Positions 1,491-6,490 of a stretch of DNA of 64,000 bases are shown here, piece after piece. The stretch covers positions 320,001-384,000 of the forward strand of contig CAVYGN010000001.1 in the NCBI GenBank assembly GCA_963768055.1, written 5' to 3'. The first letter of the stretch is position 1; each line of letters opens with the position of its first letter. The notes beneath the pieces are model-generated. The model did no database searches and was not told where the DNA came from. It saw only the letters and a program-made list of their open reading frames with translations. Origin of the DNA: an uncultured Spirochaetota bacterium (GTDB taxonomy: Bacteria > Spirochaetota > Brevinematia > Brevinematales > JAOACQ01). The position numbers and the translations under genes were made by a program.

Positions 1491-2999
1491 ATGAAATTAC
1501 CCTTTTTAATTGCAATATTTATATTTATCGCGGGAAGCCTTTTCGGTGAATGGATCGAGTTGTCTAACAGGTATGTAAGGATCCTGGCCGATTACGATAC
1601 GGCGAGGCTTACAATGTACGCCGCGACAGCCGGTACCAACGCGAAGACAGCGGCCTATAAGCCCCTGCTTTATTATTCAAATCCCTTGGCTTCCTTTGCG
1701 ACCATATCCATTAATAACCAGTACGGCATATTCGGGAGCGGCACGGGCTTTTTCAAGAAAAAGCCCTATATCCTGAAGGATAAAATAGTCTCAGAATGGG
1801 TGATGAAGGGAGTAACCGTGGTCCAATCGGCGGGCATCGTTGAGGGGCCCGTTTCAGGCGTTCCCGATACTATGAGCCTGACTTACTCATTATTAAACAA
1901 CACCCCTATGGATGTGACTGTTCAGATGAGGGTGGTCCTGGATCCTGTCCTTGGGACTTCTGTTCCAAAGAGGTTCAGCACGCCCGGGTACGGCAACATT
2001 ACTAAAGAGACATTGCTTTTTGACGATTCTATCCCGTCATTCTGGTATTCTTTCGATGATTACGACAATCCGGTTATTAAGGTCCAGGGAACATTCGATA
2101 ACGCGACAAAACCGGAAAAGATAATTTTTTCTTCGTGGGAAAAATTTTATGAAAACAAGTGGGATTTCCAGATCGATTCGTCGATGGATTTCAGGAGGCA
2201 AGGAACCGTGCAGTATGACAGTGCGGTGGGGATTTTCTACAAACCGGTTACTCTTTCAGGAAATATTTCAAACCAGATTACCCTCCTGTACGGCCTCTAC
2301 TTGCCTGGAATTATCAATGAAAAGGGAATGACATTGTCGGTTTCTGTCCCAAAGGAAGTTAACAGCCTGCCTGTGACGGTCGGCGCCGAACTAAAAAATT
2401 CGGGAAATTTTCCGCTTGCAAGGCTTACCCTGGAACTTGTAGCCCCAAGTAATTTCACACTGGCCCAGGGTGAAACAAACGTTATAAAATTTCTCAAAGT
2501 GGATACGAACGAATCGAGAAAGGTTTCCTGGAACCTGTCGGGCACAAGCAGTTTTAACGCCAATGCCCTCCTGGTCCGTGCTACGGCTTTGACTAACAGC
2601 AAAGCTACAAACGCGCTTATCATACAATCTGAAAAATTCTTCACTTACTACCAGCCGTCACAGACTTTAATCACGAATGCGGTCAATACCAACACTGCGG
2701 TACAGATTCCTCAGACTAACCTCACCAATCCCCTGACAAATGCAGCCACGACTTACGTTACCCCGAACCCGGCAATTTCAGCGGAGGAAAAAACCATCCT
2801 GAATGAGATCAAGGGCCTGGATAACCTTATCGATAAAATAAGCATTAAATATGAGATTTTGAAAGGAATATACAGGAATACCTACATAACCAACAGCAGC
2901 TTTTTAAGCGACCTGGACGACGATATAAAATATTTTGAAGAAAGGCTTAAAGGAGAAGAAGAAAGCCTTACTAATGATATGACGTACCCGAGAGAATGA
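1491..2999 (+). CDS. Exported hypothetical protein (beta-rich, TN-rich linker, C-terminal coiled coil)
   Basis: 502-aa ORF with signal peptide, abutting its neighbours in an operon. Confidence 0.7.
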   Translation: MKLPFLIAIFIFIAGSLFGEWIELSNRYVRILADYDTARLTMYAATAGTNAKTAAYKPLLYYSNPLASFATISINNQYGIFGSGTGFFKKKPYILKDKIVSEWVMKGVTVVQSAGIVEGPVSGVPDTMSLTYSLLNNTPMDVTVQMRVVLDPVLGTSVPKRFSTPGYGNITKETLLFDDSIPSFWYSFDDYDNPVIKVQGTFDNATKPEKIIFSSWEKFYENKWDFQIDSSMDFRRQGTVQYDSAVGIFYKPVTLSGNISNQITLLYGLYLPGIINEKGMTLSVSVPKEVNSLPVTVGAELKNSGNFPLARLTLELVAPSNFTLAQGETNVIKFLKVDTNESRKVSWNLSGTSSFNANALLVRATALTNSKATNALIIQSEKFFTYYQPSQTLITNAVNTNTAVQIPQTNLTNPLTNAATTYVTPNPAISAEEKTILNEIKGLDNLIDKISIKYEILKGIYRNTYITNSSFLSDLDDDIKYFEERLKGEEESLTNDMTYPRE

Positions 3000-3003
3000 T
3001 GCG

Positions 3004-4083
3004 ATGCGTAATTATTTTCAGGACCGGCTTTTAAAAACCTGCAAAAAACTTAAAGAGGGGGAAGCCCTCTATGTCAATCTTCCCGAAGAGGTTTACTACC
3101 TGTCGGGGTTTACGGGCGAAGATTCAAGCATCCTTATCATTCCGGGAGGGGCTTATTTTATTACAGACGGGCGTTATGTAGAACAATTCAATATCGAAAG
3201 AAAAATAGACGCCTCTCTCGAAGAGGTAAAGCCGGGCAGAAGGCTTATTCCGATTCTTAAATCGCTGATATGCGGGCTGAAGATCTCAACTCTTCTGCTG
3301 TCCCGGAGGGAAATAAGCCTTGAATTCGCCGATGAACTCAGAAAGGCTCTCGCCCCTGACGAACCCGAACTCAGGGACTCTAAAATAATCAAGGATATGC
3401 GCATCCGGAAGGACGACTACGAAATCGAGATAATCAGGAACAATCTCATGATAACTGAGCTGGGCTATAACATTGTGCTCCCCCTGATAAAAGAAGGGTG
3501 CAGTGAAAACGAAATAGCCGCCGAACTGGAGTTTTTCCTGAGAAAAAAGGGGGCTAAAGGCCAGGCCTTCGATACGATAGTGGCTTCCGGCCCCAGGAGC
3601 GCGATGCCCCATGGCACTGCTACAGGCAAAAAAATCCAAAAAAACGAAATAATCCTCCTCGATTTCGGGATAAAAAAAGATGGATATTGCTCAGACTTTA
3701 CAAGATGCTATAATTTAGGTAAAATAATCGACCCGAAAATCATTGTCATCCATAAAATTGTGCTTAAAGCCCTAAAAAAGGCCGAGGCGATGGTTAAAGA
3801 CGGCGTTAAAGCCGGCGAAGTTCATGGAGCCGTTTCCGATTTGATTCGGGACGCCGGGTACGGGGAATTTTTCACGCATTCCACCGGGCATGGCGTCGGC
3901 CTTCAGGTGCATGAAGCCCCTTCGGTGACGTCCGGCGAAGAAACGGTCCTTTCAGAAGGAATGATCATCACGATCGAACCGGGAATCTATCTTCCGGGGA
4001 TAGGGGGCGTAAGGCTCGAGGATATGGTCCTCGTGAAAAAAGAGGGGTGCGAGGTTTTGACAACTTCGGACTATGAACTATAA
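3004..4083 (+). CDS. Xaa-Pro peptidase (M24B family)
   Basis: DFG...YCSDFTR, HSTGHGVGLQVHE, TIEPGIY and GVRLED motifs; lies upstream of efp. Confidence 0.93.
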   Translation: MRNYFQDRLLKTCKKLKEGEALYVNLPEEVYYLSGFTGEDSSILIIPGGAYFITDGRYVEQFNIERKIDASLEEVKPGRRLIPILKSLICGLKISTLLLSRREISLEFADELRKALAPDEPELRDSKIIKDMRIRKDDYEIEIIRNNLMITELGYNIVLPLIKEGCSENEIAAELEFFLRKKGAKGQAFDTIVASGPRSAMPHGTATGKKIQKNEIILLDFGIKKDGYCSDFTRCYNLGKIIDPKIIVIHKIVLKALKKAEAMVKDGVKAGEVHGAVSDLIRDAGYGEFFTHSTGHGVGLQVHEAPSVTSGEETVLSEGMIITIEPGIYLPGIGGVRLEDMVLVKKEGCEVLTTSDYEL

Positions 4084-4095
4084 ATTGGAGGATAT

Positions 4096-4656
4096 ATGGT
4101 TTCATCTAACGACCTGAAAAAGGGGATTGTGCTTAAAATAGACGGCGATCTCTACTCGGTGCTCTGGTACCAGCACCATAAGCCGGGCAAGGGGGGCGCT
4201 ATAGTAAGGACAAAACTGAGGAATATCATTAAAGATACCGTAATAGAAAAAACATTCCGTGCCGGCGAAACTCTCGAGGATGTTTTCGTTGAAAGCAAGG
4301 AAGCCCAGCTACTTTACAGGGAAGACGATCATTTTCTTTTCATGGACAATGAATCCTACGAACAGTATTCCGTTCCCGAAGATATCGTGGGAGAAGCCTC
4401 AAAATACCTGAAAAACGAAATGGTATGCACTCTTTCTATTTACAAGGAAGAGATCATCGGCGTAGAGCCGCCGATGTTCGTTGATCTTGTCATTACCGAA
4501 ACAGACCCCGGGCTCCGAGGCGATACTGTAAGCGGAGGGTCTAAACCGGCGACTCTTGAGACAGGGGCGGTGGTACAGGTGCCCCTTTTCGTCGGAATAG
4601 GAGAGAAGGTCAGGGTGGATACAAGGGACGACCGCTACATAGAAAGGGTCAAGTAG
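4096..4656 (+). CDS. efp: Elongation factor P
   Basis: KPGKGGA loop, KPATLETG and VDTR motifs; GGAGG RBS. Confidence 0.98.
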   Translation: MVSSNDLKKGIVLKIDGDLYSVLWYQHHKPGKGGAIVRTKLRNIIKDTVIEKTFRAGETLEDVFVESKEAQLLYREDDHFLFMDNESYEQYSVPEDIVGEASKYLKNEMVCTLSIYKEEIIGVEPPMFVDLVITETDPGLRGDTVSGGSKPATLETGAVVQVPLFVGIGEKVRVDTRDDRYIERVK

Positions 4657-4664
4657 GAGGGGGG

Positions 4665-5144
4665 ATGATAGATATAAAGGATATCAAAAAACTTCAAAGC
4701 ATATTTATGGAAAGCGGCATAGGCGAGATCGAGGTGCGGCATGGCAGGGACGCCGTAAGACTTACGATCGGGCAGGTTAAGGGAAAAGCCCGGATCGTGA
4801 AGGCGGCAGCTGCGCCCGTACCTATCCAGGGCCCTTCGGGCCCTTTAACAAACGCTCAGAAGGCCCTTAATACCGATGAAACCAGGGCCGATTCCGGAAT
4901 TTACGAGCTCCGCTCAAAATGGATAGGTTTTTTTACAAGGCTTAATTCCAAAACCGGAGAGAACTATATAAAACTCAGGGACGTTGTAAAAAAGGGGGAC
5001 CTGGTGGGCCATGTAAGGGTCCTCGGGGTCCTGCAGGACATCAAATCGGAAATTAACGGCAAAGTCAAGGAAGTATTGGTGGAGGAAGGCCAGCCCATAG
5101 AATACGGCCAGCCTGTTATGCGCTTTGAAATTCAAGGAGAATAA
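4665..5144 (+). CDS. Biotin carboxyl carrier-like protein lacking the canonical biotinylated Lys (accB position)
   Basis: BCCP architecture (N-terminal domain, Ala/Pro linker, GQPIEYGQP) between efp and accC, but EAMK is replaced by RVLG. Confidence 0.85.
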   Translation: MIDIKDIKKLQSIFMESGIGEIEVRHGRDAVRLTIGQVKGKARIVKAAAAPVPIQGPSGPLTNAQKALNTDETRADSGIYELRSKWIGFFTRLNSKTGENYIKLRDVVKKGDLVGHVRVLGVLQDIKSEINGKVKEVLVEEGQPIEYGQPVMRFEIQGE

Positions 5145-5146
5145 TA

Positions 5147-6490
5147 ATGTTTAGAAAAATACTTATTGCCAACAGGGGTGAAATCGCTGTCAGGGTCATT
5201 CGGGCGGCAAAGGAGCTGGGAATACCGACAGTTTCAGTCCACTCCGAAGCAGACGAAAAATGCCTTCACACTCAATTGTCCGACCAGGATGTCTGTATCG
5301 GCCCCGCTCTTTCCAGCGAAAGTTACCTGAATATTCTTGCCATAATCAGCGCGGCTGAGATAACCGGAGCCGACTCAATTCATCCGGGATACGGATTCCT
5401 TGCCGAGAATTCGAAGTTTTCAGGCATCTGCAAGGACCATAAAATCACCTTCATCGGCCCTTCGGCCGAGGTGATCGACCTGCTCGGGAACAAGGCCGCC
5501 GCCAGAAAAACAATGAATGAGATCGGGGTCCCTATAACCCCCGGTACGGATATAATCACAAACCCGGCTGAAGCTGTTCAATTTGCCGGTGTATCCGGCT
5601 ACCCGGTCATTGTTAAAGCGGTCGCCGGCGGGGGCGGTAAGGGAATGAGGGTCGCATGGTCCGACGAGGAACTGACCAATATCATCCCGATCGCCCAGGC
5701 CGAGGCGAAATCCGCATTCGGAAACCCGGATGTTTATGTTGAAAAATATTTAAGGGAACCGAGGCATATAGAAATTCAATTCCTGGCCGATAATTTCGGC
5801 AACGTGGTGCACCTTGGCGAACGTGACTGCTCGATCCAGAGGAGACATCAAAAGCTTGTTGAAGAATCTCCGAGCCCCAGCCTTTCCCAAAGGATCCGCG
5901 AGGAAATGGGCGAGGCGGTCAAGAAGGGGGTTAAAAAAGTCGGCTATTCCGGCGCGGGAACAATGGAATTTCTCTTCGATACCGATGGTAAATTTTATTT
6001 TATGGAAGTGAATACGAGGATCCAGGTAGAGCATCCGGTCACTGAAATGGTAACCAACGTTGACATTGTTAAAGAACAGATAAGGATTGCGATGGGCGAA
6101 AAACTTTCTTTTACCCAGGAGGACGTAAGAATCAACGGAAACGCCATCGAATGCCGCGTTAACGCCGAGGATCCGTCTATGAATTTTATGCCGATGCCGG
6201 GCGTCATTACAGATTTCCATCTGCCCGGAGGGCCTGGGATCAGGGTGGATACCCATGGCTATGCGGGTTATGAAATCCCTAAGTATTACGATTCCCTGCT
6301 TGCGAAAGTCATCGCGTGGGGCAGGGACAGGAATGAGGCTCTCGCGAGGATGAAGAGGGCGCTCCAGGAATTCACTGCCTCAGGTATTAAAACGACCATA
6401 CCCTTTTATGAAAAGCTGCTTGAAAATCCCGATTTTCAGAGGGGCAGCTATTCGACAAAATTTCTGGACAATTTTAAATTCACCTGCTGA
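5147..6490 (+). CDS. accC: Acetyl-CoA carboxylase, biotin carboxylase subunit
   Basis: KILIANRGEIA, HPGYGFLAEN, GGGGKGM, RDCSIQRRHQK, EVNTRIQVEHPVTE and YDSLLAK motifs. Confidence 0.97.
   Translation: MFRKILIANRGEIAVRVIRAAKELGIPTVSVHSEADEKCLHTQLSDQDVCIGPALSSESYLNILAIISAAEITGADSIHPGYGFLAENSKFSGICKDHKITFIGPSAEVIDLLGNKAAARKTMNEIGVPITPGTDIITNPAEAVQFAGVSGYPVIVKAVAGGGGKGMRVAWSDEELTNIIPIAQAEAKSAFGNPDVYVEKYLREPRHIEIQFLADNFGNVVHLGERDCSIQRRHQKLVEESPSPSLSQRIREEMGEAVKKGVKKVGYSGAGTMEFLFDTDGKFYFMEVNTRIQVEHPVTEMVTNVDIVKEQIRIAMGEKLSFTQEDVRINGNAIECRVNAEDPSMNFMPMPGVITDFHLPGGPGIRVDTHGYAGYEIPKYYDSLLAKVIAWGRDRNEALARMKRALQEFTASGIKTTIPFYEKLLENPDFQRGSYSTKFLDNFKFTC

Follow-up and report, generated by a model that had tools for sequence, protein, structure and literature searches.

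The open reading frame in the accB position of this Spirochaetota genome encodes a BCCP/AccB paralogue of 159 amino acids in which the biotin-accepting lysine is replaced by glycine. It covers positions 4665 to 5144 of the window, i.e., the whole stretch of 64,000 nucleotides that was analysed, and like all window features described here it lies on the forward strand. The assignment is based on the intact reading frame, family matches, an alignment, a structure model, and comparison with relatives. We think it moderately probable that this protein is a dedicated non-catalytic ACC subunit, which would be made together with AccC and would hold the BC-carrier assembly together, leaving the carboxyl shuttle to a paralogue with the AMK motif. 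The initial annotation had proposed a non-biotinylated ACC subunit or regulator in a bacterium, and this more general proposal is supported by the sequence comparisons, which would fit either role.

Gene structure and operon context

The lysine-less gene is part of a densely packed block. A gene for a PepP-like M24 aminopeptidase (3004 to 4083; matches to PF00557 and PF01321) opens the conserved order pepP-efp-X-accC and is followed by efp, encoding elongation factor P (4096 to 4656), for which all three EF-P Pfam domains were matched. A Shine-Dalgarno-like AGGAGG (4655 to 4660) precedes the ATG at 4665 and overlaps the efp stop codon. Downstream, accC (5147 to 6490) encodes a biotin carboxylase that scores 698.7 bits with TIGR00514, above the cut-off, and with a single PF02785 match genome-wide it is the sole one in the genome. 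A candidate ribosome-binding site for accC, AAGGAG (5134 to 5139), lies within the final codons of the BCCP-like gene. The lysine-less gene and accC are one tightly packed operon and are co-transcribed, and their translation looks coupled because only 2 nt separate the stop codon of the former from the start of the latter. The efp-accB-accC synteny that had been noted earlier is borne out, both by the spacings in the window (8 nt from efp and 2 nt to accC) and by the relatives, as the lysine-less gene lies directly upstream of accC, the place of a true accB, here and at all 27 order-level loci.

Family models recognize the protein with different success. PF00364 (Biotin_lipoyl) gives 28.5 bits, above its gathering threshold of 22.1, and TIGR00531 (BCCP) matches over the whole length with 95.1 bits, below its curated cut-off of 115.2.

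Hairpin and predicted structure

The codons AGG GTC CTC GGG at 5016 to 5027 encode R118-V119-L120-G121, the GGG of G121 lying at 5025 to 5027. HMMER aligns residues 2 to 153 to the E. coli BCCP chain 4hr7_B, without gaps over the stretch 103 to 153, and places G121 on the K of "veamkm" (chain residue 142) and R118, V119, and L120 on E, A, and M. The biotin-accepting Lys of the (E)AMKM hairpin, by which AccB/BCCP proteins are recognized, is therefore absent, and the protein has what is expected of a BADC, a BCCP-like domain without biotinylation motif. Conversion of GGG into any Lys codon takes two base changes, and the neighbouring E, A, and M have been exchanged as well. The initial annotation was thus right in every detail about Gly121 at the Lys position and the several differing codons, as it was in stating that a single base error cannot explain them.

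For BirA, the (E)AMKM hairpin must present a Lys at its tip. The EAMK hairpin, lost in the lysine-less protein, is what we take to be the BirA-recognised, CO2-carrying site, and we infer from the sequence that the 159-aa protein is unbiotinylated in vivo. Another lysine at the hairpin, with the one in "QDIK" as the obvious candidate, could have overturned this reading. That lysine, K127, varies among the 27 relatives (K in 13, V in 10, I in 2, T in 1, and R in 1), and there is no conserved Lys at the modelled tip. Across 36 sequences of the lysine-less family V117, V119, L120, G121, and Q124 are invariant, making the hairpin the most conserved stretch of the family; K103, K109, and K133 are invariant as well. 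The E that precedes AMK is present in all 30 canonical paralogues vs 3 of the 50 lysine-less copies. Loss of E118 plus K121 may stop the lysine-less protein from occupying BirA, an idea based on reported mutant work; a literature search for E119K gave nothing relevant.

The rest of the fold is kept, as had been claimed, both in the full-length HMMER alignment and in an AlphaFold2 model built from 36 sequences (mean pLDDT 77; C-terminal domain above 90), which superposes on 1bdo. Residues 1 to 35 (4665 to 4769) form the alpha/beta/beta motif of AccB (helix 4 to 13, strands 21 to 26 and 29 to 34), in which about 15 of 33 residues are identical with the E. coli AccB N terminus in the HMMER alignment. 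An Ala/Pro-rich linker follows (residues 37 to 77; 4773 to 4895) and is predicted to be disordered, with pLDDT below 50 over most of its length and a pN of 0.48 to 0.71. Residues 78 to 157 (4896 to 5135) make up a biotinyl-type beta-sandwich domain with thumb, for which pLDDT is above 90 and pN is low. The N-terminal motif, flexible linker, and thumb-bearing biotinyl domain of a full-length AccB are all present. The closest Foldseek matches are E. coli BCCP structures, 1bdo (rmsd 1.4 A, TM 0.89) and 4hr7. In the model L120-G121 is the turn at the hairpin tip between strands 113 to 119 and 122 to 127. Comparison of the copies also revealed a signature, KLRD, at residues 103 to 106 (4971 to 4982), where canonical BCCPs have K/E-V-G-D/Q.

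Conservation and selection

Order-level relatives were taken to be Brevinematales (Spirochaetota), judged from the source names of the nearest matches, which include the cultured Thermospira aquatica, whose orthologue is P0053. All 27 order-level orthologues have G at the lysine position and KLRD at 103 to 106. The block pepP-efp-X-accC is kept at the 27 loci, with efp adjoining the BCCP-like gene in every one and pepP found ahead of efp in most. A search of the protein database gave 111 homologues, and among the 62 closest (P0001 to P0062) the hairpin V-x-V-L-G occurs in 61 of the 61 that reach it, the fragment P0012 ending short of the hairpin and being left out. The xLG motif, whose conservation the initial annotation had proposed to check, is thus kept throughout the order and among the close database homologues.

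The nature of the constraint was measured against four genus-level relatives. For the C-terminal domain of the lysine-less protein, pN is 0.035 to 0.084 and pS is 0.72 to 0.85, i.e., saturated; the corresponding values for the canonical carrier are 0.052 to 0.089 and 0.58 to 0.89. The linker of the lysine-less protein evolves nearly freely (pN 0.48 to 0.71, pS 0.69 to 0.89). Mean identity of the C-terminal domain is 68% for the lysine-less copies and 64% for the canonical ones, calculated over 276 non-independent pairs from the 24 genomes with both copies. The C-terminal domain of the lysine-less protein is under strong purifying selection and is constrained like that of the true carrier.

The missing lysine could also be due to decay of accB into a pseudogene or to faulty assembly; beyond this absence nothing speaks for either, and we reject both with near certainty. 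The conservation data refute both: VLG and the order pepP-efp-X-accC are found in 27 of 27 relatives and the C-terminal domain is constrained, so the copy is not decaying, and the suspicion that relatives have AMK and this copy is on its way out proved unfounded. The gene has an uninterrupted frame preceded by a ribosome-binding site. In addition, a contig from a public run spans 4968 to 5194 with no difference listed, although this run may be the source sample itself.

Other ACC components of the genome

The genome (3.69 Mb in two contigs, 94.75% complete) holds a second BCCP of canonical type. This protein of 170 aa reads CIVEAMKIMNEI (IVEAMK) at the hairpin, scores 127.4 bits with TIGR00531, above the cut-off, and is encoded on contig 2 (1477863 to 1478375), with an aminotransferase gene ending 37 nt upstream and hisF downstream. 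Of the 29 loci from relatives, 18 retain the aminotransferase gene as a neighbour. The other PF00364 matches in the genome are an E2-like protein and GcvH, so the true carrier is encoded elsewhere than in the window, as the initial annotation had supposed. The search for another biotinyl domain with the MK motif and for birA, which it had suggested, also returned a single BirA with an N-terminal HTH (contig 1, 1070424 to 1071383).

Next to the AccC of the window, the genome encodes one AccD-type and one AccA-type carboxyltransferase, and FabD is present; the lysine-less protein therefore co-exists with a true BCCP and heteromeric ACC, as a BADC would. In AccD (contig 2, 140402 to 141247, reverse strand), two codons of the open frame precede an M-A-W start, which conforms to M-x-W, and there is a Cys4 ribbon of the CxxC...CxxC type. 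With these two features, the M-x-W N terminus and the Cys4 ribbon, AccD touches BC and BCCP in ACC tubes of E. coli. BioY is encoded on contig 2 (981530 to 981976), and no BioB match in the genome exceeds the cut-off, the best having 105 bits vs 225. Biotin auxotrophy, together with a repressor-type BirA, is probable for this organism. That its biotin economy is linked to the biotin-free subunit is only an idea.

Distribution in relatives and across the phylum

Of 41 relatives, 33 gave a match to AccC as well as to the lysine-less query, and the remaining 8 gave a match to neither. The 33 comprise the 27 order-level relatives and 6 genomes of a sister order, where the query picked up a more remote homologue of BCCP type. 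A canonical-type copy accompanies the lysine-less gene in 25 of its 27 genomes, the two exceptions being genomes 57% and 86% complete, and it reads EAMK in 24 of the 24 copies that were fetched (the copy of genome G026 fell outside this sample). The eight unmatched genomes (G020, G023, G028, G029, G030, G032, G033, and G034) belong to one family, f6, and have sizes of 1.5 to 2.3 Mb and completeness of 69 to 95%. With a canonical BCCP as query, six of them gave weak biotinyl-domain matches only, and the other two had no match. These eight small genomes of the order seem to have lost ACC as a whole.

In the sister order of the class (f7), the lysine-less gene has a different setting. At all three loci (L048, L049, and L050) it is not beside accC and is followed by a gene for a HisKA/HATPase_c histidine kinase. 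The hairpin reads IEVLGVLNEI at two of the three (L048 and L050), and KLRD is absent. At L048 (genome G035) the start of the kinase gene (1934 to 3253) overlaps the stop of the BCCP-like gene (1504 to 1941). This neighbourhood hints at another or an additional role of the lysine-less protein.

A search of 201 genomes of the phylum gave BCCP-type matches in 79, and 20 loci with intermediate scores outside the order were fetched. The lysine is absent in 19 of these 20, its place being taken by H (8), N (6), G (4), or Q (1); the remaining one reads S-L-K. accC directly adjoins 18 of the 20, the other two being cut by contig ends. The KLRD signature of 27 of 27 Brevinematales copies extends, as KLR[DE], to 15 of these 20 other Spirochaetota copies and to none of the 30 canonical paralogues. 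When five genomes with one match were searched again with the BCCP family, three of them were found to hold a canonical copy as well. In genomes with a single BCCP match the copy reads EAMK and lies directly upstream of accC in 21 of 21, a set picked by one query match, with which a very divergent second copy could be missed. One member of the lysine-less clade (P0124; locus L062, 2559 to 3029, of genome G043) has KLRD and lies beside accC, and carries a hairpin Lys in the non-canonical context I-S-L-K-I-P, perhaps as a reversion or as an intermediate.

When 65 AccC proteins were placed in a tree (443 columns), those encoded beside a lysine-less copy, 44 in number, fell on one side of a branch with an SH-aLRT of 88, so the lysine-less trait needs only one change. 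A single ancient origin would agree with this, as would a mere split of the phylum into two deep clades. On the same tree the arrangement is kept across at least a dozen family-level groups. No AccC position is fixed differently (at least 90%) between the 44 lysine-less-linked and the 21 canonical-linked AccCs, and AccC is therefore without a partner-specific signature.

The trees of BCCP itself are less clear. The free tree has a canonical clade (aLRT 91) and a mostly lysine-less clade (aLRT 84). With the hairpin columns removed (96 rows), the K/non-K state needs three changes. Placing every lysine-less row in one clade is marginally rejected (AU p 0.039), and a recent duplication within the order, with the Brevinematales paralogues as sisters, is not rejected (AU p 0.317). 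Because the trees are weak, the BCCP tree alone cannot date the duplication.

A profile search was run against 1.84 billion proteins, and 146 of its best 150 representatives were evaluated (four fragmentary or aberrant rows were dropped). Of these, 47 are without the lysine and 99 have it; the library carries no organism names, so these counts describe the family and not its spread beyond the phylum. A related-locus search of genome contigs with a diverse lysine-less alignment gave 78 canonical loci, mostly proteobacterial, and 2 Brevinematales loci among 80, and is uninformative on spread outside the phylum, as it was keyed on C-terminal patterns common to canonical BCCPs.

Discussion

The arrangement that we favour is one in which two copies of AccB appear to split the two jobs that a single AccB performs in E. 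coli, anchoring or assembly vs carrying, since the shuttle would be the canonical AMK paralogue encoded elsewhere. The operon with accC would supply the lysine-less protein together with biotin carboxylase, its retained AccB N-terminal alpha/beta/beta motif would allow oligomerisation, as in E. coli AccB, and its biotinyl-type domain with thumb would be able to sit on BC. The lysine-less protein would bind AccC and/or the true BCCP, and judging from its sequence we expect the net effect to be on assembly rather than inhibition. For E. coli, PMC11160672 describes ACC tubes in which BC and the AccD N terminus hold a parked BCCP domain at a non-catalytic site, models the first ~30 residues of AccB as an oligomeric hub that tethers the carriers, and considers BCCP to be about twice as abundant as BC. 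As far as the alignment and the model can tell, exactly these structural elements of AccB, the hub motif and the BC-docking domain, are kept in the lysine-less protein.

The C terminus offers a further difference between the copies. The motif G-Q-P-V/I-E-Y/F is present in 20 of 27 lysine-less copies and in none of the 30 canonical paralogues of the class, and the host's canonical BCCP is without the G-Q-P-V-E-Y/F motif that its lysine-less copy keeps. Among canonical BCCPs elsewhere the motif occurs in 41 of 99, in a sample biased towards the profile used. Such complementary retention is the pattern to be expected if one ancestral AccB had undergone subfunctionalisation. A broader proposal, which we put forward tentatively and hold to be somewhat less probable than not, is that much of Spirochaetota runs a five-subunit ACC. 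After one ancient duplication, the accC-linked AccB would have become a biotin-free scaffold contacting BC and AccD and forming the N-terminal hub, and the dispersed AccB would serve as shuttle only.

The same anatomy also fits negative regulation, as plant BADCs were first described as inhibitors; inhibition was the first model for them and is cited in PMC11926652. The lysine-less copy might compete with holo-BCCP on BC or CT, or form dead hetero-oligomers, and so throttle ACC. It keeps a BC-docking domain and an oligomerisation motif while CO2 carrying is impossible, and its hairpin, the most conserved stretch, suits a plug that still docks in the active site. However, a constitutive stoichiometric inhibitor of an essential enzyme, coupled to accC, would be an odd design, and it would have to have persisted over at least a dozen family-level groups in spite of a hairpin residue that differs by lineage (G, H, N, or Q). 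We consider inhibition, the main rival reading, unlikely. Far less probable still is that the protein remains a carrier that is modified at another lysine or by another ligase. The invariant K103, K109, and K133 could be taken as candidates, but in the AlphaFold2 model all three are away from the hairpin tip, and K127, which comes nearest to it, varies among the relatives. BirA needs the Lys at the (E)AMKM tip, and a canonical carrier is encoded in the same genome.

It is also conceivable, with a low probability lying between those of the last two proposals, that the protein is a regulatory or moonlighting one whose main partner is not ACC, for example an autoregulator of the operon acting via its N terminus, or a ligand of a signalling protein. 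Residues 1 to 68 of E. coli AccB repress accBC, as PMC11160672 states, and the N-terminal motif is kept here; the sister-order gene beside a histidine kinase gene at three of three loci, away from accC, would agree with a role in signalling. Autoregulation would, however, leave the very strong constraint on the C-terminal domain unexplained, and the lysine-less protein is unmatched in the same eight genomes as AccC. A non-catalytic subunit of ACC remains our preferred interpretation.

The heteromeric ACC of bacteria is regarded as having four subunits and is a target for antibiotics and metabolic engineering. A conserved fifth subunit derived from BCCP would alter the view of its assembly and stoichiometry, and the interpretation of plant BADCs would change too. 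The "accB" annotation is affected as well, as lysine-less genes are now named as the carrier, for example in the NCBI name of P0053. The lysine-less/canonical pair is a natural experiment that separates the structural role of AccB from its carrier role. If the broader five-subunit proposal is true, this would be textbook subfunctionalisation within an essential enzyme, the biotin demand of a biotin auxotroph (BioY present, no BioB over the cut-off) might be halved, and there would be a simple bacterial system, e.g., the cultured Thermospira aquatica, for the "glue versus inhibitor" dispute on BADC.

What is already known is the BCCP fold and family and, from plants, the principle of a non-biotinylated BCCP-like ACC subunit; our literature searches gave no description of a bacterial lysine-less BCCP or BADC-type protein. 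The closest structural relative is E. coli AccB/BCCP (PDB 4HR7 and 1BDO; TIGR00531), with which the protein shares the three-part architecture, the full-length alignment, the fold, the thumb, and the position of the gene directly upstream of accC. It differs in having RVLG for EAMK, in the KLRD signature, in a score of 95 bits against a cut-off of 115, and in that a second, canonical copy does the carrying. The epsilon subunits of actinobacterial acyl-CoA carboxylases form a family that is not known to be related to BCCP or derived from it. What they have in common with the role proposed here is that they are small and non-catalytic and are said to "glue" the holoenzyme, as cited in PMC11926652.

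In proposed function the parallel is with the BADC proteins of plants and green algae (Arabidopsis BADC1-3), which are likewise BCCP-like proteins without the biotinylation motif that exist beside true BCCPs and heteromeric ACC. BADC is reported as a "glue" for BC-BCCP in PMC11926652, and that paper and PMC11889953 propose BADCs as non-catalytic subunits of the BC-BCCP subcomplex. The likeness concerns the working principle. In contrast to BADC, the Spirochaetota protein is bacterial, is encoded together with accC in an operon, at the ancestral accB position, and keeps a recognisable AccB N-terminal motif. Its hairpin has VLG throughout the order; in the rest of the phylum the place of the lysine is taken by H, N, Q, or G. 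It is likely that the lysine-less protein is independent in origin from plant BADC.
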